From Gemmatimonadota bacterium (lineage in GTDB: Bacteria; Gemmatimonadota; Gemmatimonadetes; Gemmatimonadales; Gemmatimonadaceae), in contig JANLSF010000657.1 of the NCBI GenBank assembly GCA_031362285.1, positions 1 through 35,861 on the forward strand: 35,861 bases of DNA. Direction: 5' to 3'. Below the pieces are notes generated by a model. The model was not told the DNA's origin and ran no database searches. It saw nothing but the letters and a program-made list of their open reading frames with translations. Both the position numbers and the translations under genes were made by a program. Position 1 is the stretch's first letter, and each line of letters opens with the position of its first letter. Shown here piece by piece: positions 2,841 through 29,905 of this stretch.

Positions 2841-5800
2841 TTGTTGATGCGCATGCCTCTCCCTGGTCGGGGGCGCCCCGACGCCCACTGCGGCGTCCGC
2901 GCCACCTGGGGCAGATCCCGCGGAGTGGCGCGCCATTTCGCTGTCGCACCACTAGCTCGCATCGAGCCAGGTGCCAGCGCCGTGAACTGTTCAGTGCAGG
3001 CATGCAAGGATGGGCGATCGTCGATCGGTATCGGGCGAGTTGTGGCGGGGCTCTCGGTCATTTTTCTTGTAGTGCTCGCCGGTACGGCAGGAAAAGCATT
3101 CGCTCTTCCTGGTAGGGCACCTCAGCGACCGATAAACGAAGCACTTCACGCGCTGAATCCGACTGGACCACTCATCGCGGCAGATGGCATTACCAGCGAT
3201 CCGTACAACGCGACGGTACGGAGTCTCACACCGACATTGAGCACAATCCCCGCCGCGTTCGCCGGCGGTGGTCAACCTCCCGTTAGCTACACGTTTGCGA
3301 TCTGCACGGGCGCAGGTTTGACTGGAAACTGTCACCTCGCAGAGACCGCGACTCCGACCTACACGATACCGGCGGACGCTCAGTTCACGGATGACTTCGG
3401 CAATCCGACTAGCACGGGGCTGTCAGACCTTGGCTCCTATTACTGGGCTGCGACAGCGGAATGGGAAGACGATTGGTGGGAATCGAGCGAGTATGAATTC
3501 CATGTAGATATCGTCCCGCCCGTTCGCGGGGTGGGCCCGCTCGGCTGGCTGGGACACGGGACCACCCAGCCTCAATTCCAGGTGGCATTCACTCAGCAGC
3601 CGGAGCAGGGGGTTCAGTTCGCATATACCTATCGCATCTACCGATGGGACGGCTCCCTCTACACCACAACAACCTCACCTAGCGGACCGGCGCTCCCTGA
3701 ACCATCAACCTCGGTCGTCTGCAGTCCTCACCCCGATTGCCAACGAGTGTGGTTTTGGGACGCGACTGTCCAATACACGGGGCCGGGCGCCCAACCCGGA
3801 TCAACTGAGGCAACGGCTGCCACGCCCCTTGCGCGCGCGCGCATTGTCTCGGCTCCACAGTTCGTGAGAGAGCCAACCAATCTCAAGCCATCCGGGCTCG
3901 TCAATACGACCGTGACGGTAGCTAATCCGGCGATCAACTTCAGTGGGACCGCCCGTGACCCAGCGGGAGGCCTGTGTCTGGTCGGTATTGCTCCCGAAAG
4001 TTGTCGCTGGGGTATTGGAGTAAGTACTGATCGGACGTTGCTCACTTCGTACACGTTCCCGCAGGGCTTCCTAAATTTCCCCAACGTGATACCGACACAG
4101 AATCGCTGGTCGACGATATGGGGTGACAGTCCCAATCTTGCCTTTGCGACCACGCTTGGGAGTACGGCATGTATACCCTTTGCGTGCTCGTGGGCGACAG
4201 GGCTGACGAACGGTCAAAGCTACTATTGGAATACCGTGGCGAAAGGACAATCCGCGTCACTGGCGTACGGGTTTTGGTTCAAGACCGAGCCAACGGGCTT
4301 TACCTTGTTGCTGGACGACCACGCGCCATGCCCCGTTGGGCCTCGCTTCCAAACGCCAAACGGGACAGAGCCGAACGCTACTTTTCTGACCGCCGCGATT
4401 GACGGCACCGTCTCCGGAGTGACGGGCTGCACGACGGTACCATTGAACGATTCAAGACGAACCTATCGTTGGACGATCTACAAGGGGCCGGGGGCGACCG
4501 CGAAGCAAGCTTGGCAATCGGCTTGGGGGCCAGTGACGGTCAACGGGAATCTCGCGGAGATGAAGGTGCCGCAGGGCGTCGTCGAAAACGGGACACAATA
4601 TCAATATACATTGCAGTCGGCACTCGACGGTGTGCCTGGTACCCCAAGTGCACGATATGCGTTCACGGCCATGATTCAGGCGCAAGTGCCAGAGCCGATG
4701 AGCCCTGGGCAAGGGGCCGTAGTTCCTGCAACCACTCCGACGCTCACCGCGGTCAGCGGCCCTTCCAGTAGAAGCGCTCCGATCGCGTATGCGTTTGAAG
4801 TTTGGGCAAGTGTCGCGACGGATCCAGTGAACCCAGACTGCGGCAACACTGGCAACACGCGAGTCGGTGGGAACAGTCTGAACGGGAGTGACGTGGCCTG
4901 GACGCGTGGCAGTGCGTTCAGCGTCCCAGACGGTTGGCTAACCGACGGGCGAGTGTACTGCTGGCGCGTCAAGGCGATGAATGCATATCAACCGTCGACT
5001 GCATGGTCGAGTTGGCGCGCGTTCAAGGTGAGTCGCCCGATGTTGGGGTCGGGGGACTGGGCGATGTGGTCGCGTGGTCCCGCGTCGGTGAACCTGAAGA
5101 CAGGGAATCTGGTGGTGGGTGTTCCCGGCCCATCGTACCCGACAGCGGTCGGATCGATGGGCGTCGGCCTCGCGTACAATTCCGCGAATAGTCGCGACGA
5201 GGGGTTTGGCCCCGGCGTAACGTTCTCGGTGCCGGCGGGAGCTGACGACGAGGCGGCGCCATCACAGCTGGTGGACTGGAACCTCCCTGCCGGCGGCGCT
5301 CAAGCTGAGAATGTGGTCGAGATCACTGGCGCGGACGGCTCGCCGGAGTTTTTCCTGCCGTTGGCTGATGGGTTGACGTTTGTGCCGGAGGAGCGTGGCG
5401 GGTCGGTTCTGCGTAAGCGGGGGCCGAACGTCAAGCCTGGCACGAATCCGGCTCCGTGGACGTTGACCCGCGGTGACGGCGCGGTCTACACCTTTGGGTT
5501 GGCTGACCCGGTGACGGGGGAGGCGCCGTTGTTGACGGCGCAAATCACGGCGAGCACGCGGGCCGGGGTACGGCTCGTCTATCAGAGTGACGCCTTCGGT
5601 CGGGTCACGAGTGTGACCGACCCCGCGGGTCGCGCGCTGACGTTCAATTGGGGGAGTTCCGCGGTTGGGGCGGTGTGTCCTGATGCGATCGTGTGTGTCA
5701 TCGGCCCCGATCAGGTCACGACGAAGTACGTGGGGGAAGGCGATGCCGGGCGCGCCGGCCCGCTCGTCCAGGTCAAGAACGCGGTACGTCCTGTTGTGGA

Positions 5801-8800
5801 GGTCTCGTGGGAGTACCCGACCAGTGCGCTGGGCGGTCCCGACACGTCGAAGCGTAAGCGCATCGCGAGCGTCCTTGATGCGAACACGATCGCCGCGCAA
5901 GGCCGGGGGCCTGCGGCTGGACTGACCCCGGGGCACAACGGGACTTACAAGCTCGCGTTCGGGTATGCGGACCCTGTCGATAGTTACCGGGCGACCCGGT
6001 TGACGGAAGGGCCGATCACAAGCGCCGGGAGTCAGGTCTCGTCGGTGTGGACGCTCACCTACAACACGGGTGGCACGACCCAGGCGACGGTGAATGCCCA
6101 CCTGCCGCACATCGCGGCAGGCCAGACTCGGCAGGCGGCAGGGAACACCCAGATCACCGGGCCGCGCCACCAGGGCGCCTCCCCAGCTGTGGTCGAGACG
6201 GTGTGGTTCGATGAGTTCGCCCGCCCGATCCAGACGCGCGACAGAGCGGGCCGAACGACACAGGGTGGGTGGAGCACCGACAACCTGCCCGTATGGTCGG
6301 AGGACCCGATCGGCGCGCCAACCGACACGACCTACGAACTCGTCAACAAGACGCCGGTTAGTGTGCAGGGCCCAGACCCCGACGGAGCTGGGACGGCGTT
6401 CACTCAGCGACCTGAATCGCTGTCGTTCTACGACGAGATCACCCCGGGGACCGGACGGGCCACCGGGCCGGTGCTCCACGGGGTGCAAGCGGCGTACTTC
6501 GATAACCGGAACACCGCTGGGCGACCGTACGCGATGCGGCTGGACCCGACAATCGACTTCGACTGGGGTGCTGGGACCGCCACGCCGCTGGCGTCGTTGC
6601 CAAGCGGGCCGCCTGTCGACAACTTCTCGGTCCGGTGGAACGGGGTCCTCGACATCCCTGACGACGGGCAGCCCGGCGACCCCCGCTACGTGTTCACGGC
6701 GGTTGCCGACGGTGGCGTGCGAATGACCATCGACGGGGTCCTTGTCGTGGACAGCTGGGTCGATCCACAAGGAGCCGGGCCCCAAACTTCTGTGTCGGAG
6801 GAGTTGACCATCGCGCCGGGACCGCACCGCGTTGAGGTGAGCTACTTCGATGGGGACAAGTCCAACGCGGCGATCACACTGAAATACCGGCTGACGTCGC
6901 CGACGACGACCTTGGATGCAGTGTTGCTGGCGAGCACGCTCCGACCCGCGTACCTCAACCAGACCTCGACCGTCGGACCGCAACCCGACAACCGCAGGAC
7001 GTTCAGCCACTACGCGACACCCGAGCGCGGCCTACCCGACGACACCCTAGTCAAGGGCCCGGGTGGGCAGGACATCATCACGAGCTTCACTTACGACGAC
7101 CTCGGCCGTACCACCAGCAAGACGATGCCGCGCGGCAACGCCGCCCGGACGATCGACCCGGCGACTGGGAACCTCAACGGCACCCCGGACTCAAGGTTCA
7201 CGACCGAGTGGGCGTACTACGGACTCGTCAGCACCGACGCGAACTACACCGCCCAAATCCCCACAATCTGCGGCGGGACCACCGGTGTCCTCACACCGCA
7301 AGCCGGGGGGTTGCGTGAGAAGCGCGTGCCCGGTCTTGCCGTCGTCACGAGCATCGCTGATGAGGCCGGACGGCCGCGCGCCGATACCCGCGGTCGCGGC
7401 ACGACGTGCTTGAACTACGACGCCGAGGGGCGACTCACGTCCTCCAAAACCAAGGCAGGAAGCGCGCAGCAAGAGGTCACGAACTACACCTACGACCCGA
7501 ACGGTGCGACTCGGATTGTCAGCACCCCCGCGAAAGGCGTCGTAACGACCGAGTACGACGAGGCAGGACGTACCCGCCGGACTCTCGACTCGCAAGACAC
7601 CCCGCCGCCAGCGCCGCCCGGCACCGCTCCGGCGGACGCAAGCGCTCCGACTGCCACGTTGATAAGCCCCGCGGCCGGCGGCGTGACAGGAACACAGGTG
7701 TCGGTAGCCGCGACGATCACCGACGACATCGGCGTGGTCGGCGTCCAGTTCAAGCTCGACGGGGTCAACCTCGGGTCCGAAGACACGCGCCCACCGTACC
7801 GGGTGCTATGGGACGCCACCCAGTCCGGCAACGGCAGCCATCAGCTCACCGCCGTTGCGCGTGACGCAAGCGGCAAGAGCACCACCTCACCCGCAGTCGC
7901 GGTCACCGTTACCGGGGGCCTGAACACCGCACCGGCGGGGCTCGTTGCCGCATACAACTTCAACGAAGGCACCGGCACAATCCTCACCGACCGCTCCACC
8001 ACCGGGAACACCGGTACCCTCATCAACGGCCCCACGTGGAGCACGACCGGCAAATACAGCGGCGCACTGCAGTTCGACGGGGTGAACGACCGCGTCAACA
8101 CTCCTGACGCCAACAGCCTCGACTTGACCAACCGCATGACCGTCGAAGCGTGGGTCAACCCCAGCGCCGGCTCCGCACAAAAGACAATCATCGAGAAGGA
8201 AAACGCGAGCAACCTCCGCTACGGCATCATCCACGACAGCAGCCGCAGACCTCAAGGACGCATCTACAACGGCGCCACCCAGTCGGCAAACAGCGGCACC
8301 GCCCTGCCCACAGGGACCTGGACCCACCTCGCCGTTACCTTCAACGGCAGCGTCGTCACCCTCTACACCAACGGCGGTTCGCCGGTAACACTCTCCACGT
8401 CCACCGCGATGACCGCCGGGACCGGTGTGTTAAGCATCGGCGGTAACACCGTCCGCACCGGAGAATGGTTCACCGGCAGCATCGACGACATGCGCATCTA
8501 TAACCGAAGCCTCTCGGCCGCGGAGATCACCACAGACCTCAACACAGCCTTACCACAGTACGTCGCCGCACAACCACCAGCCGCGACCATACCTGCCGGA
8601 GACGGAGCAACCGAAACAACCCTTGTCTACGACCAGGAAGGTAACCCCCTGCAGCGCAACGCTGCACCCGGCGCCCTCGGCGCTGGCCAAGGGCACACGG
8701 TCAACTACAGCTACAACGCCGACAACTCACTCGCGACCCAGGAGATTCGTGCCTACGGCGCCACGACCGCGGGGGACACATACACCTACAGCTACGACAC

Positions 8801-10343
8801 CCGCGGAGCTCTCAAGGGCATCCAATACCCAGGAACTGTCGCCAACAGCTGGCGCGTCTACAACCAAGCGGGCTGGCTCACCGGCATCTACAACCGCCAC
8901 GGACCGATGCCGACCGGCACCCTAGCGCCCGACGCGCCCCCAGCGGCAGATCTCAGTCCGATTGCGGACTACCTATATGACTACGCACCTGACGGGCATC
9001 AGCTCAGAGAGCAACTCCGTTCCGACACAGCTGGCTCGCAAACGCGAGAGTATTCATACGATGTCGCAGGACGGCTTGCCACCTATTTCACTCCGGCTCA
9101 GCTCCTCCGCGAGTACCGATATGATCTCGATTCGAACCGTACGGCAACGCTGGAAACTCCGTCCGGCGGCGCGCAGGCGTCGGTCGCCACCTACATTTAT
9201 GATCCCGGCACGGCTGGGAGTCCGAGCGGCGTCGACCAACTGACGAGTAAGCTGGAGGCGGGCCAGACTCGCACATACAGCTACAATCCCGATGGAGAGC
9301 TCCGCACAGAAACCGCAGGCGTTGCTACCGTGCGCGACCTGAGCACTACTGGCGACTGGGATGGTCTCGGGTGGCTCTCTGCAGGCACGTACTCTGGTGT
9401 CCGCGTAGCGACGACACGCGATCCGGCTGGAGCTATTAAGGCGCGCGGGTCGGCCGGTAAGACTATCGAGTACCTAGGCAACGACTTCGAAAGAACCGGA
9501 GGTCAAGTCACTCAAACGACGCCCTCCGGTCCTGCCGGCATCCTTGTCCGCTATGCAGGAGCCGCTCCAACAGGTACCCGCACATTCGTATTCTTTAACG
9601 GTCACGGTGACGTGGCCGCGGTAACGTCTTCGTCTGGAGTGCGGCAGGGTCCGGTCTCGACGTACGATCCGTTCGGAAACATCGAGTCCCAGGCAACATC
9701 CACCAACGGGACGGTTGAGGGCTATCTCGGCCAGTCACGCGCGAAACTCGATACAGTGTCAGGCCTCATCACTATGGGCGTGCGCCCATATGATCCATCC
9801 CTCGGCCGCTTCTTAGCTGTCGATCCCGTCGACGGTGGCTCAAGCAATAACTACGACTATGCCCGTCAGGAACCCTGCGGTAACCGTGACCCATCAGGAG
9901 GAGTGACCGTCGCACCCGGTGCCGGATGCAATTTTGCGGGGGTGAGATTCACTGCGCAAGGCGTGGAGTGGTCTCTTCAGACGAACCCTGTTTCCGGGAC
10001 CGTCCACTGGGGGTATCAGTTTACCCCAGCTACTGCTATTGAAAGACCGGTGATTCTTACTTTTGCCGCCAGTTTGACGATCAACGGTCGCACGAGCGGG
10101 TACAGCTATTTTAAGCCCGCTTTTGGGATACCCGGCCCGTTATACGACTTTCACGGCTCGATCCGCAAGAGGCAAACATACCCTGGCGTCGCTGATCGTC
10201 CGGCGGCGAGCCGCCTTTCGCGGCGGGGAGAGCTATTCGTTCTTGTCTTTACGCTCACTGGCCTGGACACCTCTGGCGATCCCTGGACCGGGCGCGGCTC
10301 GATCACTTGTACCTATCGGCCGCGGACTGGACCACGCGGATAG
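2841..10343 (+). CDS. secreted RHS/YD-repeat polymorphic toxin with PA14-, Ig- and LamG-like inserts and an unassigned C-terminal toxin domain
   Basis: Single 7.5-kb ORF with a Sec-type signal (GRSSIGIGRVVAGLSVIFLVVLAGTAGKAFA/LPG). The real start is probably GTG 2994 rather than TTG 2841. Five W-rich ~100-130-aa beta modules span approx 3207-5040. The shell-opening segment reads VNLKTGNLVVGVPGPSYPTAVGSMGVGLAYNS. YD repeats include FTYDDLGRTTSK, YSYDTRGALKG, YSYDVAGRLAT, YRYDLDSNRTA and YSYNPDGELRT. Inserts are PA14-like (approx 6489-6890), Ig-like (7647-7917) and LamG/ConA-like (7941-8550). The RHS core ends GVRPYDPSLGRFLAVDPVDGGSSNNYDYARQEPCGNRDPSGG (DPSG at 9888-9899), followed by a 147-aa tip (9900-10340). 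Confidence 0.95.
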   Translation: MLMRMPLPGRGRPDAHCGVRATWGRSRGVARHFAVAPLARIEPGASAVNCSVQACKDGRSSIGIGRVVAGLSVIFLVVLAGTAGKAFALPGRAPQRPINEALHALNPTGPLIAADGITSDPYNATVRSLTPTLSTIPAAFAGGGQPPVSYTFAICTGAGLTGNCHLAETATPTYTIPADAQFTDDFGNPTSTGLSDLGSYYWAATAEWEDDWWESSEYEFHVDIVPPVRGVGPLGWLGHGTTQPQFQVAFTQQPEQGVQFAYTYRIYRWDGSLYTTTTSPSGPALPEPSTSVVCSPHPDCQRVWFWDATVQYTGPGAQPGSTEATAATPLARARIVSAPQFVREPTNLKPSGLVNTTVTVANPAINFSGTARDPAGGLCLVGIAPESCRWGIGVSTDRTLLTSYTFPQGFLNFPNVIPTQNRWSTIWGDSPNLAFATTLGSTACIPFACSWATGLTNGQSYYWNTVAKGQSASLAYGFWFKTEPTGFTLLLDDHAPCPVGPRFQTPNGTEPNATFLTAAIDGTVSGVTGCTTVPLNDSRRTYRWTIYKGPGATAKQAWQSAWGPVTVNGNLAEMKVPQGVVENGTQYQYTLQSALDGVPGTPSARYAFTAMIQAQVPEPMSPGQGAVVPATTPTLTAVSGPSSRSAPIAYAFEVWASVATDPVNPDCGNTGNTRVGGNSLNGSDVAWTRGSAFSVPDGWLTDGRVYCWRVKAMNAYQPSTAWSSWRAFKVSRPMLGSGDWAMWSRGPASVNLKTGNLVVGVPGPSYPTAVGSMGVGLAYNSANSRDEGFGPGVTFSVPAGADDEAAPSQLVDWNLPAGGAQAENVVEITGADGSPEFFLPLADGLTFVPEERGGSVLRKRGPNVKPGTNPAPWTLTRGDGAVYTFGLADPVTGEAPLLTAQITASTRAGVRLVYQSDAFGRVTSVTDPAGRALTFNWGSSAVGAVCPDAIVCVIGPDQVTTKYVGEGDAGRAGPLVQVKNAVRPVVEVSWEYPTSALGGPDTSKRKRIASVLDANTIAAQGRGPAAGLTPGHNGTYKLAFGYADPVDSYRATRLTEGPITSAGSQVSSVWTLTYNTGGTTQATVNAHLPHIAAGQTRQAAGNTQITGPRHQGASPAVVETVWFDEFARPIQTRDRAGRTTQGGWSTDNLPVWSEDPIGAPTDTTYELVNKTPVSVQGPDPDGAGTAFTQRPESLSFYDEITPGTGRATGPVLHGVQAAYFDNRNTAGRPYAMRLDPTIDFDWGAGTATPLASLPSGPPVDNFSVRWNGVLDIPDDGQPGDPRYVFTAVADGGVRMTIDGVLVVDSWVDPQGAGPQTSVSEELTIAPGPHRVEVSYFDGDKSNAAITLKYRLTSPTTTLDAVLLASTLRPAYLNQTSTVGPQPDNRRTFSHYATPERGLPDDTLVKGPGGQDIITSFTYDDLGRTTSKTMPRGNAARTIDPATGNLNGTPDSRFTTEWAYYGLVSTDANYTAQIPTICGGTTGVLTPQAGGLREKRVPGLAVVTSIADEAGRPRADTRGRGTTCLNYDAEGRLTSSKTKAGSAQQEVTNYTYDPNGATRIVSTPAKGVVTTEYDEAGRTRRTLDSQDTPPPAPPGTAPADASAPTATLISPAAGGVTGTQVSVAATITDDIGVVGVQFKLDGVNLGSEDTRPPYRVLWDATQSGNGSHQLTAVARDASGKSTTSPAVAVTVTGGLNTAPAGLVAAYNFNEGTGTILTDRSTTGNTGTLINGPTWSTTGKYSGALQFDGVNDRVNTPDANSLDLTNRMTVEAWVNPSAGSAQKTIIEKENASNLRYGIIHDSSRRPQGRIYNGATQSANSGTALPTGTWTHLAVTFNGSVVTLYTNGGSPVTLSTSTAMTAGTGVLSIGGNTVRTGEWFTGSIDDMRIYNRSLSAAEITTDLNTALPQYVAAQPPAATIPAGDGATETTLVYDQEGNPLQRNAAPGALGAGQGHTVNYSYNADNSLATQEIRAYGATTAGDTYTYSYDTRGALKGIQYPGTVANSWRVYNQAGWLTGIYNRHGPMPTGTLAPDAPPAADLSPIADYLYDYAPDGHQLREQLRSDTAGSQTREYSYDVAGRLATYFTPAQLLREYRYDLDSNRTATLETPSGGAQASVATYIYDPGTAGSPSGVDQLTSKLEAGQTRTYSYNPDGELRTETAGVATVRDLSTTGDWDGLGWLSAGTYSGVRVATTRDPAGAIKARGSAGKTIEYLGNDFERTGGQVTQTTPSGPAGILVRYAGAAPTGTRTFVFFNGHGDVAAVTSSSGVRQGPVSTYDPFGNIESQATSTNGTVEGYLGQSRAKLDTVSGLITMGVRPYDPSLGRFLAVDPVDGGSSNNYDYARQEPCGNRDPSGGVTVAPGAGCNFAGVRFTAQGVEWSLQTNPVSGTVHWGYQFTPATAIERPVILTFAASLTINGRTSGYSYFKPAFGIPGPLYDFHGSIRKRQTYPGVADRPAASRLSRRGELFVLVFTLTGLDTSGDPWTGRGSITCTYRPRTGPRG

Positions 10344-10412
10344 GAGTCGGCCACACAGACCCAGCGCGCGGTGGGCCGGGAGACGGTGAGCTAATTCTGG
10401 TCAACGCCAGGT

Positions 10413-10868
10413 GTGTTGTGCAAAGTCCAATTCGACGATAGCGGGAACAACGGTAACATGGAACCATCCAGACTCAGTACAGTAGTCAAGGCCGCAATGG
10501 AGGATATCCCTGGTCATCTGGTGACCCCCCTTGCCGAGGAGCGAGTGGGTGCCGAGGCGTTCGCGGTGATCGGAGTTTCTGGGAACACAGGTCTCTTCCC
10601 GATTGCAACCCATTGCGTGGCTATTGGCCGTAGGTGGACGGCGACGGCGTCGTGCCCGGCCGAAGGTGGAGGCGCGTTATGCGGTTGGGCATATCTCTGC
10701 GACCGGGTCTCTGAGGGGACCACCGAAGTGCTCGTGGAGTGGAGCGGCGAAACACACGCCTGCGCGGTTGTGGACGGATGGTTCGCATTCGTGACGAAGA
10801 GCGGTAATCAACCAACGCTGTTGCCTCGCCTGATCGCGGCCGACATAAACAGCGGTGAGGAGTCGTGA
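10413..10868 (+). CDS. candidate cognate immunity protein of the RHS tip (no recognisable family)
   Basis: First same-strand ORF, 70 nt after the RHS stop. It lies in visibly lower-GC sequence (29 G+C of 60 counted by hand for 10381-10440). The start is ambiguous (GTG 10413 or ATG 10458). The call rests on position, as is usual for polymorphic-toxin loci. Confidence 0.45.
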   Translation: MLCKVQFDDSGNNGNMEPSRLSTVVKAAMEDIPGHLVTPLAEERVGAEAFAVIGVSGNTGLFPIATHCVAIGRRWTATASCPAEGGGALCGWAYLCDRVSEGTTEVLVEWSGETHACAVVDGWFAFVTKSGNQPTLLPRLIAADINSGEES

Positions 10869-10940
10869 GACACGGTCACGAAGGGCATTCCCGCAAACAA
10901 GGTCGCTCGCGACCTCTTGACAAACTCGTAGTATCCGCTC

Positions 10941-11243
10941 ATGAGGGAGGCGAATGCCGGGGAGCCCACGCCGAGCGCGCCAAGGCCTGCCGGACATCGG
11001 CTTCGTTCGCTCTTGGTGCTGTGCGCTGGTATGGGCGTCGGTGTTGCAGTGGTTTTAGGATGGCAAACCGTTGCAGCTGATGGGCTGACCGTCGTCACCT
11101 GCTCCAAAGAGGGCCGCGGCAACAGCACCCCGGTCACATGCACCCGAGCTGAATTCAAGGAACCCGGCGGGCAAGTGCGCTCATTGTCGAGCTGCGTTCG
11201 CGGTCGCCCATCGAGCGGCGTAGGTCCCTGCCGCCTCGACTAG
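10941..11243 (+). CDS. small membrane-anchored Cys-containing protein (hypothetical)
   Basis: 100-aa ORF with one hydrophobic segment (LLVLCAGMGVGVAVVLGW) and four Cys in the remainder. There is no clear SD. It could be a second or orphan immunity-type gene. Confidence 0.3.
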   Translation: MREANAGEPTPSAPRPAGHRLRSLLVLCAGMGVGVAVVLGWQTVAADGLTVVTCSKEGRGNSTPVTCTRAEFKEPGGQVRSLSSCVRGRPSSGVGPCRLD

Positions 11244-11334
11244 AAACAGAGTATGCCGTTTAGGCCCATTCGAGCCGCCCGGCAAAGCGCTCGGGTTGAG
11301 GGCAGTCGAGGACCGCAGATCCCTCTGAAACGAA

Positions 11335-11354
11335 CATAACAACAATTTGCGTGC
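11335..11354 (+). repeat. copy 1 of the 20-nt motif CATAAC-N5-TTTGCGTGC
   Basis: cataac aacaa tttgcgtgc. It is intergenic, 3-prime of the minus-strand gene ending at 11421. Confidence 0.6.
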
Positions 11355-11420
11355 ATTCCGTAAAGCGAGACGAAGCTGCCGGGAAGGCACCTGAGTCTGC
11401 CGGGCGCGTGTTGCACCAGA

Positions 11421-11933
11421 TCAGGTCGCCGATCCGAGCTCTCCGCGGACGAGGAGTTCCAGCTCTCCGACCTTTTCGTCATAGCGTTCGCTGAAAGTAT
11501 GCATATCCATCCGAGCGGTGACGGTCTGCTGGTCCGTGTCACCGAGTTGAACCTTCACGCATCGGTAGATACCCACGCTCGCTCGCCACTGTCTGGAGGC
11601 TGCCAGGCAGGCGTCGGGGGCGGCGTTCAGCTCGGACGACCCGAGCGCGCTCGTCATCGCCCCGAGTCTGATGCCGTCCTCCTCGCTCGGCATGTCCGGG
11701 ACAGGGGGCGGGCCGGCCGCTGGCACGACGAACGGCTCGGTGCGCGCTATTAGAAGCTTCAGGCGGTGGAAGTAGGCGAAGATATCGACGTAGAGGTCGC
11801 GGCGAGCGTCGTAGCTTCGCCCTGCGCGCACCATCCACTCCTCGTGGCGACGTCCATCCCGTGCGATCCACAAGCCCGACCCGATGCCGGCGAGCCCGAG
11901 GACTGCGCTGGAGATGATCGCGGTATCGGCCAT
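11421..11933 (-). CDS. hypothetical protein with an N-terminal TM anchor
   Basis: ORF track 11421..12044(-). I prefer ATG 11933 (MADTAIISSAVLGLAGIGSGLWIA...) because it opens directly with the hydrophobic helix and leaves a 53-nt gap to the upstream gene. No known domain recognised. Confidence 0.45.
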   Translation of the reverse strand: MADTAIISSAVLGLAGIGSGLWIARDGRRHEEWMVRAGRSYDARRDLYVDIFAYFHRLKLLIARTEPFVVPAAGPPPVPDMPSEEDGIRLGAMTSALGSSELNAAPDACLAASRQWRASVGIYRCVKVQLGDTDQQTVTARMDMHTFSERYDEKVGELELLVRGELGSAT

Positions 11934-11953
11934 GTCACGCGATTCTAGACCCG

Positions 11954-11973
11954 CATAACGGTAGTTTGCGTGC
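11954..11973 (+). repeat. copy 2 of the 20-nt motif CATAAC-N5-TTTGCGTGC
   Basis: cataac ggtag tttgcgtgc. It lies in the 53-nt gap between the two minus-strand genes 11987..12382 and 11421..11933. Confidence 0.6.
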
Positions 11974-11986
11974 CTCAAGAAGCGGT

Positions 11987-12382
11987 TTAGGCGCGTCCTT
12001 CCTCCGCCGGGTCTGGGGCCTCGGACCGGATGTTTGCCAGCCATTTGTCGACGCTGCTCGCGTACTCGGCGTGGAGAGGAGGTGCCGCGAGCTCAAGCGC
12101 CGATAGGCTTTCGTCCAGGCGCTGCCACGCGAGCGGCTCGTCGGCGACTATTGGTAGGCGAAGCATGGTCAACACCGCAGCGACGCGTATGAGCGCCATG
12201 TCAACCTCACCCAGTTGCAGGTGCGAGGTCATCTCGGCGAGCAGTTGGTCGACATCGGTCACGCCCTGGGCATGCCTCCGCAGGCCGGGCAGCATCTGGT
12301 TGAGCATGGCGAGAGCTTCATCGAGGGGCTGTTTCGATGCTGCCCAGAGCAAGTTCGCGCTGCAAAACCGACAGGTCCGCAA
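11987..12382 (-). CDS. hypothetical helical protein
   Basis: 131-aa ORF with no recognisable domain. An overlapping frame (12318..12584) reads MANVAGNAMMWRAIRFADL..., which could be its real N-terminus if there is a frameshift near 12340. This is unresolved. Confidence 0.4.
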   Translation of the reverse strand: MRTCRFCSANLLWAASKQPLDEALAMLNQMLPGLRRHAQGVTDVDQLLAEMTSHLQLGEVDMALIRVAAVLTMLRLPIVADEPLAWQRLDESLSALELAAPPLHAEYASSVDKWLANIRSEAPDPAEEGRA

Positions 12383-12647
12383 AGCGGATCGCTCTCCACA
12401 TCATGGCGTTCCCGGCTACGTTAGCCATGGCTCCGCGCAGCTCCTGGTCTCCACCATCAGTCGCTGTCACAGAACACTCCTCCCGCCCTTGTGCTGACGG
12501 TCTCCTGGCTCGCCCTTCGGCTCCTGAGACCGGCTGGTCGGCGGACGATAGCTGGCGACTCAGCCTTGGCTCCGACCCTGGCACCCGGCGATCGGGCGAG
12601 ACAGGACCGCAGTTGATTCACGGTTCGTCCGGGCGTGGTGCCATTCT

Positions 12648-13208
12648 TTGGGAGGCATGGCGAGCGATGATCCTCAGCACAACGACGCGATCGAGTCGGG
12701 AACCGTTGAGCTGCTCTTGGACACGGTGAGAGGCCTGCTCACCGCGGAGAACGACCGCAGCGAGAGCTTTAACGCGCGCGGCTCAGGGGTCGCAGGCTTC
12801 GCGGGCATCGTGGTTTCGGTCTCGGCAGCGACCGGTCCGACGATCCTGGGCGACAAGTCCGCTGGTGCGGCTCGCTGGGCGGCCGCTGTCTTGCTTGCGC
12901 TGGGCCTGACCGCATTGTTGGTGGCGGTCGGGATCGTCGTGTTCCGGGTGCTCTGGCCACGTGGATTTACGACGTTGGCGATGAGCGAGATCCGAAGGTA
13001 CCCGTCATGGGAGTCCGTGACCCGCCCGCCGGTCATGGTTCAGGGATCGCTCCTAGCCGCCTACGTCGAGATGCTCGCCGTCGAGCGAGACCTCGCTGAC
13101 GCGAAGTCGCGGGCCCTGCGGGTGGCCTACGGTGCACTGGCCGTCGGGATTGCCTCGATTGGCGCGCTCGCGGCTATACTCGGCCTCCACGAGTTGGGAG
13201 TTTCGTGA
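12648..13208 (+). CDS. three-TM membrane protein with SLATT / Pycsar-TM (DUF5706)-like topology (tentative)
   Basis: An N-terminal amphipathic helix (VELLLDTVRGLLTAENDRSESFNARGS) is followed by TM1 (GVAGFAGIVVSVSAATGPTIL) and TM2 (WAAAVLLALGLTALLVAVGIVVFRVLW). A soluble stretch and a C-terminal TM3 (VAYGALAVGIASIGALAAILGL) follow. The family assignment rests only on remembered topology. Confidence 0.5.
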   Translation: MGGMASDDPQHNDAIESGTVELLLDTVRGLLTAENDRSESFNARGSGVAGFAGIVVSVSAATGPTILGDKSAGAARWAAAVLLALGLTALLVAVGIVVFRVLWPRGFTTLAMSEIRRYPSWESVTRPPVMVQGSLLAAYVEMLAVERDLADAKSRALRVAYGALAVGIASIGALAAILGLHELGVS

Positions 13209-13327
13209 GCGATAAACCTTCTACCCCACCGTCGTCCGCTCCGCCTCCGTCGGGGTCACCGTTCGAGGCCCACCCTACTGAGCCCAGCACCAGAGGCGAC
13301 GACCCACCCGGGAAGGAGACGCGGTGA
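13205..13327 (+). CDS. small Pro/Ser-rich ORF (40 aa), overlapping coupling
   Basis: GTG 13205 overlaps the preceding TGA (GTGA), with GGGAG 4 nt upstream. Product: VSDKPSTPPSSAPPPSGSPFEAHPTEPSTRGDDPPGKETR. It is too short for the ORF track and is weakly supported. Confidence 0.2.
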   Translation: MSDKPSTPPSSAPPPSGSPFEAHPTEPSTRGDDPPGKETR

Positions 13328-13503
13328 GCACAACCACTGTGAAGACCCCGGCGATCGCCGCCGCCGCGAGCCCGTTCTCGCCGGCTGAGATCACGACTCT
13401 CTATCCCCTCCAGCCATCGGAGCGGGCCGTCATCGACTCACTCCTCGAGAAGCGCGCAGCGGCGCCGCCGGACCTCCCCTCCTCCCCAACGAGCGCCACG
13501 TAG
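13324..13503 (+). CDS. small ORF (59 aa), overlapping coupling
   Basis: GTG 13324 overlaps the previous TGA (GTGA) and is preceded by GGAAGGAG (13311-13318, 5-nt spacer). Product: VSTTTVKTPAIAAAASPFSPAEITTLYPLQPSERAVIDSLLEKRAAAPPDLPSSPTSAT. Confidence 0.3.
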   Translation: MSTTTVKTPAIAAAASPFSPAEITTLYPLQPSERAVIDSLLEKRAAAPPDLPSSPTSAT

Positions 13504-13691
13504 CGCCGGAGCCCACCGGTCCGGATTGGGTATCGCCCGCGACGTAACGTGCGAGGTGACCGTAGATCAGTAGGCCCTGCCCCGGCGGCATTTCGCGCAA
13601 GGCGTTTGCCGGGGCGAGGCTTCGGTACATGACCGACTCCGTCCGCGAGCTACGGCCCTCGGCGCCGCTCGTCGACGCCGTCCGGCGACCT

Positions 13692-24736: not shown

Positions 24737-25756
24737 GTGCGCCAGGTCCTGGAGGGAGGGACGATCGGCGGATACACTGTCGTGCTGACGGGGCCCGTTC
24801 CCCTGGTACGTGCGTCCGCGGCACGCCGGGCTCGCGTCCTCCGACGGCAGGCCGGCTTCGCCGGCCGACTGGCTCGGCGCGAGAGCCGGCGGGAGGTGGC
24901 CATCGGGTTCATCGACGGGTCGATTGCGGAGGGTCATCCCAGCCTGGCATCCGCCCGGATCCTCGTCGTCGACGAGGCTGCTGCCCGCCCGCTGCTCGCG
25001 CCTACCGCGACGGAGCACGCGACGTTCACCGCCTCGATGCTTGTGGGACAGGGAGAGGGCGTCCTTGGTCTCTGTCCGGACGCCCTTCTGCTCAGCCTCC
25101 CGGCAGTGAGCGCACCGATGCTCAGCGGCGCCATGCTTCCGGGAGAGGTCGCCGAGCGTCTGGCCGAGGCGGTGCGAGCCGCCGTGCGGGCGGGAGCAGA
25201 CGTCCTGCACATGGGCCTCGAGTTCGACGCGATGCCCACTCGCCACGCGGCTCCCCTCACCGAGGCCCTCCGCGAAGCGGTCGGGCGCGGGGTGCGAGCG
25301 GTGCTCGCCGCGGGGAACTCAGGCCTCCCGGCCGCGTCCTCGGTCCTCGCCGCCGATGGGGCTGTGCCCGTCGCGCTCGGCGGCCGGGCCGGGGATCCTC
25401 ACCCCCTCTCCACGTGGGGGCTGACGATCGGGAGACGCGGGCTCACCGCGCCTGGCGTCGATGTCCCCGGAGCCGTCCCTCCGGACGGGTACGCCCTGAG
25501 GTCCGGCAGCAGCTTCGCCGCCGCCTTCGTGACTGCGGGCTTCGCGCTCCTGCGCGCGGCCGGCCATGACCCCGATGCGGCCTGGGCAGCGCTGCTTGAC
25601 TCCGGCGGGCGCGGCGCGACGCTCTTTCCGCCACCGCTCGACGCAGAGGCCGCCGATGCAAGGTTGTTCACATCTCAAAGGAGGGCTCATGAATACGCAG
25701 GACATCGGGCTGCCACAGGACATCGGGCTGCCGCAGGCCCTCGCGGACGTGGATAA
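24737..25756 (+). CDS. subtilisin-like S8 serine peptidase, PatA-like
   Basis: D/H/N/S motifs occur in subtilase order: VAIGFIDGSI, EHATFTASMLVGQGEGVLGLCP, AAGNSG and GSSFAAAFVTAGFALL. The HxxxxASxxxGQ context resembles cyanobactin PatA/PatG proteases. GTG 24737 is the first possible start, and the real start may lie further downstream. Confidence 0.8.
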   Translation: MRQVLEGGTIGGYTVVLTGPVPLVRASAARRARVLRRQAGFAGRLARRESRREVAIGFIDGSIAEGHPSLASARILVVDEAAARPLLAPTATEHATFTASMLVGQGEGVLGLCPDALLLSLPAVSAPMLSGAMLPGEVAERLAEAVRAAVRAGADVLHMGLEFDAMPTRHAAPLTEALREAVGRGVRAVLAAGNSGLPAASSVLAADGAVPVALGGRAGDPHPLSTWGLTIGRRGLTAPGVDVPGAVPPDGYALRSGSSFAAAFVTAGFALLRAAGHDPDAAWAALLDSGGRGATLFPPPLDAEAADARLFTSQRRAHEYAGHRAATGHRAAAGPRGRG

Positions 25757-26633
25757 GCCGTGCTGCGACGAATGCGCGGCGCGAGATGCGGCGGCGGGCG
25801 AGACCTACGTCTACGCTTTGGGTCAGCTCGACGTTCGGTTCCCCACCATCGGCATCGAACGCGAGTACCAGCAGCGCCAAGCGCGCCTCCCGGCTCCTCC
25901 GAGCGACACGTCTCGCGGCGCCCGCATGCGCCGGGTGCTCGAGGCCAACCCACACCTCGCGGCGCGGGTCTGCTACCTCCTGGTGGTCTCCGGCGTGCCC
26001 GCCTACGTCCTGTCGCCCGGTTCGCCGCATCTTCGGGACAGCCTCTTCGAAGCCGTCGAGAACGCCGGCTCTCCTGAGCACTGGTGCCTGCTGATCGGCC
26101 GCCGGGGGCCCATCGCCGGGCCGGGCGTGTGCGCCGGGGTGCTCGCACCGATCGCGCTCTGCGATCAGCTCTACACCTTCTCGAGCGACGACTGGCTGGA
26201 TAGCCTCGAGGCCAGGGTGAACGGTGCGCTCGGTCCGAGAAAGGTGCCCGTCGAGGCCTTCCGCGCCACCACGCAGGAGCTTTTCGCCCGCATCGCGCGG
26301 TCCACTGAGAACATGGGGGCGACCGACGCGCACCGCGCACTCAACTACCTCCTGTTGCAGCACCCCGGCCTCTTCTTGGCCGGGGCGGAGCGGGCCGGGA
26401 CCAAGGATCTCTCACGGGTCGAGACACGTCTGGTGCAGGGACCCGGAGCCCGCCGCGTCGTGGCGGTCATCCTCACGTTCGTCGAGCTCGCTACGGGGGT
26501 GCCGGAGCGGCTCTTCACGCGCGTGGACGTCAGCGAGGAGTGGCCCTTCGTCGCGGATTCCTCCGACGGCGAGCGCGGCCCGCTCGGCCTCATGCCTTTC
26601 GTGGAGAACGAGTTCGTCGGGATGGCCTTCTAG
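25689..26633 (+). CDS. protein resembling the non-catalytic C-terminal modules of PatA/PatG-type cyanobactin proteases
   Basis: ATG 25689 is preceded by AAGGAGG (25677-25683, 5-nt spacer), and the ORF-track start 25566 is probably too long. YVYALGQLDVRFPTIGIEREYQQ ... NPHLAARVCYLLVVSGVPAYVLSPGS ... WCLLIGRRGPIAG parallels the remembered PatA/G pattern VYALGTIGYDFGTEARRDSF ... LIWTLNLELTPIYAIEP ... It overlaps the S8 gene by 68 nt in another frame. Confidence 0.65.
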   Translation: MNTQDIGLPQDIGLPQALADVDKPCCDECAARDAAAGETYVYALGQLDVRFPTIGIEREYQQRQARLPAPPSDTSRGARMRRVLEANPHLAARVCYLLVVSGVPAYVLSPGSPHLRDSLFEAVENAGSPEHWCLLIGRRGPIAGPGVCAGVLAPIALCDQLYTFSSDDWLDSLEARVNGALGPRKVPVEAFRATTQELFARIARSTENMGATDAHRALNYLLLQHPGLFLAGAERAGTKDLSRVETRLVQGPGARRVVAVILTFVELATGVPERLFTRVDVSEEWPFVADSSDGERGPLGLMPFVENEFVGMAF

Positions 26634-26635
26634 GT

Positions 26636-27547
26636 ATGCCGCTCCTTTCGCCGTCCGCCGCCTACCTCCGCCATTTCGGGGCGGCCGCGCACGCGAGCAT
26701 CGAGTACAGCTTCGACGCGAACCTGGACCGTCATGGCGTTACCGTGCGCGGCGGCGACGGCTTCGCAGGGGTCGTCGGCGAATTCGCGCGCTCGACGCCG
26801 TTCGCGGCCCAATGGGCGTGGGCGATCCAGCGCTTCGATCGCCGCGTGCAGCCCGACTCGTTCCTGTTCAGGGTCGACTGGTGCGCCGACGCGGTCCTCG
26901 CCCTCTCGCTGTACTGCCGGTTCCGCCACGAGCCCTCGGACGAGGCCTATGCAGACGCTATGCAGGCGGCCCGGCCTCACGTCTGGCAAGGCCCCGCGCC
27001 GGGCGTCCTCGCCGCGGTTCTCGGCGTTCCGGGACCCCGTGGGGTCGGATTCCGCGTCCATCGCTCCGGCGCCCTCCGTGTCTCCGCCTATTTCCGGGTC
27101 GATTCCCCCGTCACGATCCTTGGGCCCGATGCGCTCGACCGGCTCATGGACGCGAGTTCCTTCCCCGCGGAGGTTGCTGACCGGATTCTCGCCGACCTGG
27201 AGCAGATACATCCCGTCGGCCTCGCCGGCATCGTGGGGGTGGACGCTGGGTCGCCTGAGCGCGGGCATGCCCTCAAGTTCAACTCCCCCGACGTGCCGCT
27301 AGCGAACGCCCTGGCCTTCCTGTCGTCTAGAGGCGCCGAGCCCGCGGCGCTCGCCCGTCTGGGGATCGTCTCACGGGCGCTCCGGTCGCCGTCCGTGAGC
27401 TACCTCGGCACGCGCTACGACGCCGCGGGCTTCACCGGGTGGCGAGCCTACTTCTCGGCCGAGCCCGCACAGCATGCGACGGCGGAGGCACCCCGCGTCG
27501 TCGCCACCAACGTCACGGCGCAGCCGATGCGCCGCTCTCATCGCTAA
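26636..27547 (+). CDS. ABBA-fold (PT-barrel) protein, possible PatF/LynF-like peptide prenyltransferase
   Basis: ATG 26636 lies 2 nt after the upstream stop. The 303-aa product shows five beta-beta-alpha-alpha units. Strand pairs are IEYSFDAN/VTVRGG, FLFRVDW/LALSLYCRF, VGFRVHRS/LRVSAYFRV, GIVGVDAG/ALKFNS and VSYLGTRY/WRAYFSA. The fold and function call comes from this pattern only. Confidence 0.65.
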   Translation: MPLLSPSAAYLRHFGAAAHASIEYSFDANLDRHGVTVRGGDGFAGVVGEFARSTPFAAQWAWAIQRFDRRVQPDSFLFRVDWCADAVLALSLYCRFRHEPSDEAYADAMQAARPHVWQGPAPGVLAAVLGVPGPRGVGFRVHRSGALRVSAYFRVDSPVTILGPDALDRLMDASSFPAEVADRILADLEQIHPVGLAGIVGVDAGSPERGHALKFNSPDVPLANALAFLSSRGAEPAALARLGIVSRALRSPSVSYLGTRYDAAGFTGWRAYFSAEPAQHATAEAPRVVATNVTAQPMRRSHR

Positions 27548-27560
27548 AGGAGGTACTCCG

Positions 27561-27803
27561 ATGCTCCCAGGATTCACAGGCCTCTCCACCGCCCCCGTCC
27601 ACGGCGCAGGCCCCTCTGCCAACGCGGCCGTCCGACTCGCGCTTTGGGACACGCCGAGCCCCGAAAGGTGCCGCTACGCGAGGACCATCACGAAGTGCAC
27701 AGGAGTGGTGCTCTGGTGCACAGAGGTCTTCGTCTGCGTCAACGGCAGCGAGGAGCGCAAGACGCCGTACCCATGCGGAGGTTGCATCGGGTTCGATTGG
27801 TGA
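27561..27803 (+). CDS. 80-aa Cys-rich precursor-like peptide
   Basis: ATG 27561 is preceded by AAAGGAGG (27546-27553), starts 13 nt after the upstream stop, and ends 4 nt before the next ATG. By hand count about 65 of 80 third codon positions are G/C. Product: MLPGFTGLSTAPVHGAGPSANAAVRLALWDTPSPERCRYARTITKCTGVVLWCTEVFVCVNGSEERKTPYPCGGCIGFDW. It has no signal-peptide-like hydrophobic N-terminus, and all 6 Cys and 2 of its 3 Trp lie in the C-terminal 44 aa. Confidence 0.6.
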   Translation: MLPGFTGLSTAPVHGAGPSANAAVRLALWDTPSPERCRYARTITKCTGVVLWCTEVFVCVNGSEERKTPYPCGGCIGFDW

Positions 27804-27807
27804 CCGG

Positions 27808-28770
27808 ATGAACGCGTCGCTCGCCGGCTCCTGCTGGCCGGCGCTCCGCCGGGACGTACTGACGGCCGTCTCGGGAGGCGTCGCCTACCTCATCGACCAC
27901 CAGTGCGACGACGGCTTCTGGCGGGAGTACGATCTCGCTCCCGGCCAGAGCGAGGCATGGACGACGTCCTGGGTCGGGTCGGCAATCCTCGCTACCGCGG
28001 CGTCCAGCGACCACCGCACCTCTCTCGCCCGGGCCGCTCGGGCCGTCGCCGGCGCGGCCGCCGACGGCGGCTGGGGTTACAACCGCGCCTCGCGACCCGA
28101 CGCCGATTCCACCGCGTGGGCGCTCGCGTTCCTCAGCGCGATGGGGGTCGGCCTCGGTCGCGCGGGTCTGTGCTGCATGCGTGCCTACCTCGACGCCGGC
28201 GGCAGCGCGCACACCTTCCTTGATGACGACGCGGGTGGGTGGGGTGAGGCGCATCCCGACGTGACGCCGATTGCCGGACTGGCCCTGTTGGGCCTCGGTG
28301 CTCCGGCCTGCCTCGTCGACCTCGTCCGTGCCGCCGTCCTCGGATCGCCCCGCCCAGATGGCATTTGGACGTCCTACTGGTGGTCGACCGATACCTACGC
28401 GACGGCTTGGTCACTCAGATTCCTGGCCAGGTCGGGGGGTGTGCCCGCCAGTTGCGCCTCCAGCGGCGAGCGCTGGCTTGCACGCCTAGAGGAGGGTGGC
28501 ACCAGCCCGTTCGAGAGCGCCCACCGGCTGCTCGCCGCCACAGCGCTCGGCCTGCACGCAGCCGACCTTGCCGTGGATCTCGTCGACGAGGTTCTTCGGG
28601 GAGCATCGGCCGGGGGTGCCTGGCCACCCTCGGCCGCCCTCATGGTCCCGTCGCGCCGCAACGAGCCCGGGTCGGGTCCCCATGCCGACACCAGAGGGAT
28701 CATGACTACGGCCATCTCATCCGCGGCGCTCTGCGCATGGATGAGGGCCGCTGACGCGGTGCGTGTGTGA
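27808..28770 (+). CDS. single-barrel prenyltransferase/squalene-oxidase-repeat protein, class-II terpene-cyclase-like
   Basis: ATG 27808 is in frame with ORF 27439..28770, giving 320 aa. QW-type repeats are GGVAYLIDHQCDDGFW, AARAVAGAAADGGWGY, VRAAVLGSPRPDGIW and VLRGASAGGAW. The segment DGGWGYNRASRPDADSTAWAL (DADSTA at 28099-28116) parallels the squalene-hopene cyclase GGFAFQ...YPDVDDTAVVVWAL catalytic region. Confidence 0.8.
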   Translation: MNASLAGSCWPALRRDVLTAVSGGVAYLIDHQCDDGFWREYDLAPGQSEAWTTSWVGSAILATAASSDHRTSLARAARAVAGAAADGGWGYNRASRPDADSTAWALAFLSAMGVGLGRAGLCCMRAYLDAGGSAHTFLDDDAGGWGEAHPDVTPIAGLALLGLGAPACLVDLVRAAVLGSPRPDGIWTSYWWSTDTYATAWSLRFLARSGGVPASCASSGERWLARLEEGGTSPFESAHRLLAATALGLHAADLAVDLVDEVLRGASAGGAWPPSAALMVPSRRNEPGSGPHADTRGIMTTAISSAALCAWMRAADAVRV

Positions 28771-29123: not shown

Positions 29124-29905
29124 TCAGGAGCCGATGAGGACGACTGTGTAGCCGCCGAAAACTTGACCGTCCTGACTTGCGCTGAGCCGGTAGACGTGCG
29201 CCTCCCCTGCGGCGGGTGGCGCATCAGTTGTCGTGCACGCGACCTGCTGGTCGTCACCGACAACGTGCTGCTGGTCGGCTCCCGCGCCCGTTGGGCGGCC
29301 GCCGCCGACAGCACCTGGCGGTGAGAGCACAGCAGCCCCGGTGGGCACGGCTTGATTCGGGAACTGGCCACGCGTGCCGGTGTGCAGCTGAAGCCACGGC
29401 ATGGCGCTCGGCGCGACGCGGGTCGCGGTCACCTGTGCGGACGCCCCGTAGAGCGGCCCGACCTTCAAAACCACCGGGGCGTGTGCCCCGGGAAGCGCCT
29501 GCAAAGGGAGACCCCCGCCAAGGGCCTGATCATCATCATCTGGCCGCCCACAGCGGGGACGACGTGGATGTTGCGCTGGCCGATGTGGCGGTTGAGAGAC
29601 GCATCCCAGGGCGGGTTGCCGAGCGCGTCGGAGGTGTAGTCCCAGGCGCGTACGAGCAGGCATTCGTGCCCGCCGTTGAGGAACATCGGCGTCCACGCTT
29701 CGGGGCACTTGACGACCTTATGCGACCAGCCGCTGCCTTTCGCTCCGAGCGACGCGACAGTCTGGCCGATGAGGTGTGCGCTGCCGGGCCCAATGCCGAG
29801 CGACGGGTCACACCAATAGAACTCGACGATGACTTCCAGGGCTTGGGCCTGCCCGAAGTTCCAGACATGCGCGTAGACGGTGACCCCTTCAGCTCGTTCG
29901 AATAC
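29124..29905 (-). pseudogene. 5-prime-truncated and frameshifted gene for an unassigned beta-rich protein
   Basis: One minus-strand frame reads EGVTVYAHVWNFGQAQALEVIVEFYWCDPSLGIGPGSAHLIGQTVASLGAKGSGWSHKVVKCPEAWTPMFLNGGHECLLVRAWDYTSDALGNPPWDASLNRHIGQRNIHVVP with no start codon. A second frame continues after the (ATG)3 / gatcatcatcatc tract (~29520-29535) with APVVLKVGPLYGASAQVTATRV...HVYRLSASQDGQVFGGYTVVLIGS. Its upstream end abuts the IS remnant. Confidence 0.5.

Follow-up and report, generated by a model that had tools for sequence, protein, structure and literature searches.

A single-domain class II terpene cyclase encoded next to a precursor-like peptide in a cyanobactin-like cassette predicts a ribosomal peptide carrying a cyclised terpene

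A 35,861-nucleotide stretch of DNA from a Gemmatimonadota bacterium of the Gemmatimonadaceae (assembly GCA_031362285.1, contig JANLSF010000657.1, positions 1 to 35,861), hereafter called the window, carries a five-gene cassette on its forward strand, in which the gene of a 320-residue terpene cyclase homologue follows that of a small precursor-like peptide. The gene order is PatA-type S8 protease, PatG_D/PatG_C protein, prenyltransferase modelled with the ABBA fold, precursor peptide and cyclase. The features are as follows.

24737-25756, forward strand: S8 (subtilisin-like) protease of PatA type; the start codon is uncertain, and homologues align from about residue 30
25689-26633, forward strand: stand-alone PatG_D plus PatG_C ("cyanobactin DUF") protein; the open reading frame (ORF) opens at 25566, with the likely start ATG at 25689
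26636-27547, forward strand: predicted ABBA-fold prenyltransferase of 303 amino acids, assigned from an AlphaFold2 (AF2) model and Foldseek
27547-27561, forward strand: strong ribosome-binding site AAAGGAGG before the peptide gene, read from the sequence
27562-27803, forward strand: precursor-like peptide of 80 amino acids, with MLPGF at its start, a variable spacer, RLALWDTP, a six-Cys region, TPYPCGGCIG and a C-terminal DW
27808-28770, forward strand: cyclase gene, 320 amino acids, ATG at 27808 and stop codon at 28768-28770; homologue of single-domain class II (protonation-initiated) terpene cyclases
28099-28116, forward strand: DADSTA, a DxD(S/T)(S/T) general-acid motif, with D100 as the predicted proton donor

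Direct reading of positions 28099-28116 gave gac gcc gat tcc acc gcg, encoding D98-A99-D100-S101-T102-A103 of the cyclase. The DADSTA motif was found exactly where the original prediction, made from the letters of the window, had located it, and sequence and alignments agreed that the middle Asp of the DxDD motif is kept while the last one is Ser. The longer segment quoted in that prediction, DGGWGYNRASRPDADSTAWALAFL, is present in the protein with DADSTA inside it, the cyclase ATG does lie 4 nt past the stop codon of the peptide gene (27801-27803), and the CHG and WCxG zinc motifs are absent from the 320-residue protein, as had been claimed. The four QW-like repeats that it had described held in a loose sense; by inspection, just one repeat is a canonical QxxxGxW (HQCDDGFW, residues 31-38), and the other three or four are degenerate (D/G)GxW forms (DGGW 86-89, AGGW 142-145, PDGIW 183-187 and AGGAW 268-272).

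Residues D98, D100, S101 and W104 were invariant in 10 cassette homologues of 36-52% identity, and the surrounding segment GWGYN...DxDS.AW was invariant as well. Such invariance at this overall identity argues for selection on catalysis. No Cys was invariant in the alignment of the cassette cyclase homologues. We then searched 1.84 billion representatives with a profile of ten clade members, which detected 1,868 cyclase relatives at E≤1e-3, of which 324 reached E≤1e-30. Among the best 149 representatives of this wider family, DxD occurred in all 134 sequences that cover the region, and DxD[ST][ST] in 125. The conservation of the acid motif thus supports that it is functional, as judged from these alignments.

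The fold and family of the cyclase were examined by sequence, profile and structure comparison. No Pfam hit was obtained, with no SQHop_cyclase match at E≤0.1 and neither Pfam terpene-cyclase model at threshold, and NCBIfam gave just far-sub-threshold matches to SCO2321 and hopene cyclase. In phmmer searches of the PDB, however, the single sequence matched four solved single-domain cyclases: 6IJ1 (an Actinoplanes "prenylcyclase"; E=2e-12), MstE (merosterolic acid synthase of Scytonema, PDB 6SBB-6SBG; 6e-11), 8PAK (a Cystobacter fuscus "squalene-hopene cyclase"; 4e-9) and 8PAJ (its counterpart by title from Archangium gephyra; 3e-6). The profile of ten clade members strengthened these matches (8PAK, E=2e-31; MstE, 2e-28; 8PAJ, 9e-28; 6IJ1, 2e-25), with two-domain drimenyl-diphosphate synthases, squalene-hopene cyclase and copalyl-diphosphate synthase scoring much weaker.

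The AF2 model of the cyclase had a predicted local distance difference test score (pLDDT) of 86.7 and a predicted template-modelling score (pTM) of 0.89, and consisted of one all-helical domain with 12 helices of at least 4 residues and two short strands. Its top Foldseek matches were 8PAK, MstE, 6IJ1 and 8PAJ, at E about 1e-13 and template-modelling (TM) scores of 0.75-0.82 over the whole length, and ranks 1-33 were exclusively class II terpene cyclases. Later matches (E 1e-9 to 1e-5) included drimenyl-diphosphate synthases, squalene-hopene cyclase, copalyl-diphosphate synthase and oxidosqualene cyclase; for these two-barrel class II enzymes the TM score normalised to the target was 0.31-0.48, the window cyclase being one barrel. 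Neither LanC nor a protein prenyltransferase beta subunit appeared among the 50 best Foldseek matches or among the PDB sequence and profile matches. The best sequence and structure matches were thus class II terpene cyclases rather than LanC or an unrelated toroid, with DADSTA aligned to their catalytic DxD(D/T/S)T loop, and the suggested single-barrel, half-size class II cyclase has solved precedents in MstE, 8PAK, 8PAJ and 6IJ1, all of 346-367 amino acids. Both its sequence and its model show the 320-residue protein to be clearly homologous to cyclases of the MstE type, and on size, homology and acid motif we assign it as an additional member of the MstE-like single-domain class II cyclases. 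An unexpected fold resemblance was also seen: within ranks 34-50, the single-barrel model matched AprG, a "transaldolase" that belongs to apramycin biosynthesis (9LFQ, 9C95 and others), with an E value of about 2e-5 and a TM score of about 0.6.

In the HMMER alignment, PDADSTAW of the window cyclase corresponded column for column to EDADSTGW of 6IJ1, GDADTTGW of MstE and ADADSTA of 8PAK, so that the DADST motif is identical in 8PAK and 6IJ1. D100 aligned with the MstE Asp that the PDB titles name D109, and these titles describe a D109A crystal with product and a D109N crystal with substrate. These crystals indicate that D109 is the catalytic acid of MstE and that D100 is its counterpart; the MstE paper reportedly agrees on D109. 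D100 also corresponds to D376 of squalene-hopene cyclase.

Like MstE, the window cyclase is a single alpha/alpha barrel of the 320-370-residue class, carries DxD(T/S)T instead of DxDD with the second Asp aligned, and reaches a TM score of about 0.78, although identity is just about 21-23%. Both enzymes probably act on a prenyl chain that is already on an aromatic acceptor, not on a prenyl diphosphate. The MstE substrate, however, is the small molecule geranylgeranyl-dihydroxybenzoate, whose head group is held by residues including R337 according to the PDB titles, whereas the genomic partner of the window cyclase is a ribosomal peptide accompanied by an ABBA prenyltransferase and a leader protease. 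The other best matches (8PAK, 8PAJ and 6IJ1; TM 0.78-0.82) bear PDB titles that do not link them to any peptide. With canonical beta-gamma class II cyclases the window cyclase shares the QW repeat, the GG(W/F)... and ...PDxD(D/T)T acid loop and, by prediction, a reaction that starts with protonation; in the canonical enzymes the active site lies between two barrels, whereas the window cyclase has one barrel in its 320 residues.

Directly upstream of the peptide gene, at 26636-27547, lies the prenyltransferase gene, which the original prediction had overlooked. Its 303-residue product matched no Pfam or NCBIfam model at E≤0.1 and no PDB sequence. Its AF2 model (pLDDT 76.5, pTM 0.78) nevertheless showed five beta-beta-alpha-alpha repeats, and all 50 best Foldseek PDB matches were ABBA prenyltransferases at E 1e-7 to 1e-5, among them DMATS1, LimF, KgpF, PagF, PirF, NphB/Orf2, FamD1, AmbP1/3 and CymD. 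At the pLDDT of 76 of this model, TM scores to LimF, KgpF and PagF were 0.45-0.54, and invariant Arg, Lys and Tyr residues were located on the predicted barrel strands. The 303-residue protein therefore models as an ABBA prenyltransferase.

In all cassette loci, the peptide gene was flanked by the prenyltransferase gene on one side and the cyclase gene on the other. Eleven aligned peptides had in common M-x-P-G-F, a variable spacer, (R)LAGLWDxP, six Cys, TPYPCGxCxG and a C-terminal DW, with W29, W52, W80, Y70 and the six Cys invariant. A profile search extended the family to 104 clusters at 90% identity, all of them unnamed or "hypothetical", and the peptide matched no Pfam or NCBIfam model. 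Trp was C-terminal in 99 of the 104 clusters, of which 90 ended in DW, and nearly all started with M[LVI]PGF; six Cys were counted in 83 clusters and eight in 16. A C-terminal recognition sequence was not found, the peptides being conserved throughout up to the ...DW end. The segment (P)xVRLAGLWD (residues 22-30, 27625-27650) appears to resemble PVIRLTAGQL of PatE-type cyanobactin leaders. In locus L064, two tandem precursor genes (6001-6252 and 6296-6532) encode similar but non-identical peptides that start with MSPAF and MTPAF and end with SSW and SDW, respectively.

The protease matched Pfam Peptidase_S8 (E=1.6e-8) and the NCBIfam PatA/PatG cyanobactin protease model TIGR03895 (E=1.8e-15), the latter with a score far below the full-length cut-off because the model also spans further domains. 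Its best PDB matches were the N-terminal proteases PatA and PagA (3ZXX, 4H6V and 4H6W; E about 1e-13), followed by the PatG/PagG macrocyclases at about 2e-9, and inspection identified the D/H/S triad motifs FIDGS, EHATF and GSSFAAAF. By sequence comparison, then, the protease is closest to the leader-removing PatA enzymes and not to the PatG macrocyclases. One such S8 gene was found per cassette. The adjacent protein exceeded the Pfam gathering score for PatG_D (E=3e-15) as well as for PatG_C (E=9e-14); it was the best-conserved cassette protein, with 50-61% identity across L001-L007, and had no PDB sequence match.

Besides the window, at least 13 loci, belonging to six or more phyla, carry the complete five-gene cassette. 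The gene order was identical in L001, L002, L003-L007, L028, L029, L046, L062 and L064, and partial cassettes occurred on the shorter contigs L032, L033 and L065. L003-L007 were assigned to Longimicrobiaceae, Verrucomicrobiales, Bryobacterales, Nitrospira and Solirubrobacterales, and L062 is the cultured Massilia pseudoviolaceinigra (GCA_030846505.1); the full cassette thus occurs in Gemmatimonadota, Verrucomicrobiota, Acidobacteriota, Nitrospirota, Actinomycetota and Betaproteobacteria (Massilia). This distribution suggests that the cassette has spread by horizontal transfer. A DDE transposase gene (DDE_Tnp_1; 29536-30534, reverse strand) lies about 770 nt downstream of the window cyclase gene, which fits the patchy occurrence across phyla.

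Genes flanking the cassette were not conserved with it (DUF8243 in L001, PAP2 in L002, a 165-residue lipoprotein-like ORF in Massilia, and DUF4474). The DUF4474 protein of the window (13692-16859, reverse strand) is 58% identical to that of L001 (6446-8914, reverse strand), where it lies convergent to the cyclase gene; it is missing from the other cassette loci and so probably reflects relatedness of the hosts of the window and L001, not a role in the cassette. In L002, a PAP2-family phosphatase gene (6027-6686) that is not conserved elsewhere directly precedes the S8 protease gene, and its product might act on prenyl diphosphates. In L062, a large non-ribosomal peptide synthetase gene (9724-16267) begins about 500 nt downstream of the cyclase gene, and a MalT/BTAD-type regulator gene lies upstream.

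Cassette cyclases grouped together in a neighbour-joining tree, apart from a sister clade of 31-40% identity whose loci lack the peptide and protease genes. The sister-clade cyclase genes were directly preceded by a gene for a DMATS-type ABBA prenyltransferase (L008, L010, L036, L040-L043 and L049-L053) or fused to it (L009, 6672-9110, and P0119), and the profile of these prenyltransferases matched the DMATS enzyme 6ZRZ at E=1.4e-6. Such pairing and fusion indicate that a prenyltransferase followed by a single-domain cyclase is a general module, of which the cassette would be the peptide-directed version.

Other cyclase relatives also occurred as fusion proteins of 500-870 amino acids (P0119, P0130 and L009; P0055 and P0082; P0067, P0072 and P0081), part of them with a DMATS-like prenyltransferase domain and others with a helical domain bearing DDxxD-like motifs (P0067, P0072 and P0081), which is possibly isoprenoid-synthase-like. 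The N-terminal half of P0055 gave just a sub-threshold Trp_DMAT match and no PDB match, so that P0119 and L009 provide the evidence for fusion, through their homology to the profile that matches DMATS enzymes. In the sister-clade locus L008, which pairs a DMATS-like prenyltransferase with the cyclase, a cytochrome P450 gene (8821-10044, reverse strand) is convergent to the cyclase gene, suggesting an oxidised meroterpenoid as the product.

Given these homologies and the gene context, we propose a pathway in which the peptide is prenylated and the attached prenyl chain then undergoes acid-initiated cyclisation, within a cyanobactin-like cassette for a ribosomally synthesised and post-translationally modified peptide (RiPP). 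The ABBA prenyltransferase would draw a C10-C20 prenyl group (geranyl, farnesyl or geranylgeranyl) from the cellular pool and attach it to a side chain of the peptide. The acceptor would most likely be one of the three invariant Trp, with the C-terminal W80 as the leading candidate. The alpha/alpha barrel of the cyclase would take up the lipid tail, and D100 of DxDS(T/S) would protonate the terminal C=C bond, thus starting a cation-olefin cascade to a mono- to tricyclic terpene moiety that stays attached to the peptide, in parallel to MstE acting on geranylgeranyl-dihydroxybenzoate. The PatA-like protease would cut the N-terminal region off the peptide.

The original prediction had raised the possibility that protonation starts the cyclisation of a prenylated peptide, and the adjacent ABBA prenyltransferase and the conserved cassette now give it strong contextual support; the chemical steps, acceptor residue, prenyl chain length and order of events are proposed from homology and gene context. 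Hallmarks of RiPP clusters are seen in the duplicated peptide genes, the PatA-type protease and the cyanobactin PatG domains, which favour the peptide as the substrate. Taken together, we consider this pathway the probable one, with a fair measure of doubt.

The cassette has in common with the clusters of prenylated cyanobactins a PatA-type S8 protease, PatG_D/PatG_C domains, an ABBA-fold prenyltransferase and a ribosomal precursor. It differs from them in several respects. The family models LynF/TruF/PatF, which represent the cyanobactin F-type prenyltransferases such as PagF, KgpF, LimF and PirF, miss the cassette prenyltransferase; of these enzymes, PirF and LimF use geranyl diphosphate and KgpF prenylates Trp, according to PDB titles and general knowledge. 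No macrocyclase-type protease, heterocyclase or oxidase was found in the cassette, its PatG domains form a separate protein, and its hosts are not cyanobacteria. Unlike PatE, moreover, the cassette precursor is conserved, Cys-rich and Trp-ended, without recognition sequences flanking a variable core. We know of no cyanobactin or other RiPP pathway that contains a terpene cyclase. A further comparison is ComX/ComQ of Bacillus, in which, as is generally known, a ribosomal peptide receives geranyl or farnesyl on Trp and a ring is formed at the indole; ComQ, however, is isoprenyl-diphosphate-synthase-like and not an ABBA enzyme, the ring closes within prenyl transfer, and no class II cyclase takes part.

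Several observations weigh against cyclisation on a prenylated peptide that matures as a RiPP. No similarity in sequence was detected between the cassette prenyltransferase and known peptide prenyltransferases, and the assignment of the former rests on a moderate-confidence AF2 model built from three sequences. Profile-profile comparison likewise yielded no significant match to the DMATS-like partners of the sister-clade cyclases, and so gives no support for a common origin of both prenyltransferases. The cassette encodes no polyprenyl-diphosphate synthase, transporter or macrocyclase. Furthermore, the peptide is conserved over almost its full length with 6-8 invariant Cys, and its sequence suggests a small folded or metal-binding protein rather than the hypervariable core that is typical of cyanobactins. 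Finally, the sister clade operates without a peptide, which leaves room for a small-molecule substrate.

Conservation of this kind could also be explained by a scaffold-peptide route, in which the C-terminal Trp would be prenylated and its prenyl chain cyclised on the peptide, and the protease would then free an indole-terpenoid, alone or with a few residues; the remaining peptide would be a reusable or discarded scaffold, as in mycofactocin or pearlin-type pathways. The Trp end of 99 of the 104 peptide clusters would fit such a route, as would the conservation of the remainder like a folded domain, unlike a variable core, the pairing of sister-clade cyclases with DMATS-type (Trp/indole) prenyltransferases and the presence of the protease in every cassette. 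However, the S8 protease is nearest to PatA enzymes, whose cut on the N-terminal side of the core removes the leader, nothing indicates a cleavage near the C terminus, and the cassette has neither a tRNA-dependent ligase nor another hallmark of known scaffold pathways. We regard this route as unlikely. Its fullest form, in which a polycyclic indole-terpenoid would be built on the C-terminal Trp of a Cys-rich scaffold, with a protein-bound cyclase substrate, release by the protease and horizontal spread through soil bacteria of at least six phyla, appears to us equally doubtful. If true, it would represent a ribosomal-scaffold route to terpenoid small molecules.

A peptide-free explanation was considered as well, in which the prenyltransferase and cyclase would yield a meroterpenoid that is a free small molecule, like the products of MstE and the sister clade, the Cys-rich peptide would have an accessory, regulatory or metal-binding role, and the protease and PatG genes would have other functions. 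According to their PDB titles, the characterised single-domain cyclases in the PDB all bind small molecules; this, the peptide-free prenyltransferase-cyclase loci of the sister clade and the conservation of the peptide along its full length would be consistent with such a product. It would not account for the constant order and tight spacing of five genes over six or more phyla, for a peptide gene that always lies between two enzyme genes and is duplicated in L064, or for the PatA-type protease and cyanobactin PatG domains as RiPP hallmarks, and no cassette gene would make an aromatic small-molecule acceptor. We give this explanation a low probability, comparable to that of the scaffold route.

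Less likely still is that the cyclase is a relic without catalytic activity, whose sole role would be to bind the prenyl tail and so chaperone or present the substrate: apart from the sub-threshold Pfam terpene-cyclase models nothing specific speaks for it, and the invariance of the acid motif and the GWGYN...DxDS.AW segment at 36-52% identity speaks against it.

Protein prenyltransferase beta subunits, LanC and class II cyclases share an alpha/alpha toroid fold in general terms, and this common fold and the six invariant Cys of the peptide are what could favour zinc-dependent alkylation of peptide Cys thiols by a LanC-like enzyme or by a protein-prenyltransferase-beta-like one, the latter being the other proposal of the original prediction; however, we rejected this identity and hold it to be highly improbable, given that neither family was among the 50 best Foldseek or the PDB sequence and profile matches, that CHG/WCxG is lacking, that without an invariant Cys in the cyclase family a Cys-containing zinc site is unlikely, and that the cassette has no alpha-subunit-like gene and already encodes a separate ABBA prenyltransferase.

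Returning to cyclisation on the prenylated peptide, the cassette predicts a ribosomal peptide carrying a cyclised terpene, of which we know no description. To our knowledge, characterised class II terpene cyclases all act on free isoprenoids or small prenylated aromatics, and known RiPP prenylation yields at most a linear prenyl group or a ring formed during the transfer itself. If the prediction is true, a dedicated acid-type cyclase acting on a peptide-bound prenyl chain would join the ribosomal-peptide and terpenoid logics, the two largest in natural products. It would also define a separate RiPP subclass with about 100 unnamed precursor clusters, and would supply protein engineering with two enzymes that together equip peptides with rigid, polycyclic lipid anchors. 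Because only five genes are involved and cultured Massilia strains carry them, the prediction is directly testable.

Elsewhere in the window, upstream of the cassette, two giant RHS-repeat proteins are encoded at 2841-10343 (forward strand) and 16856-21916 (reverse strand). They comprise 2,500 and 1,686 amino acids and, with their PA14, Laminin_G_3, Big_7 and DUF6531 domains, have the appearance of polymorphic toxins.

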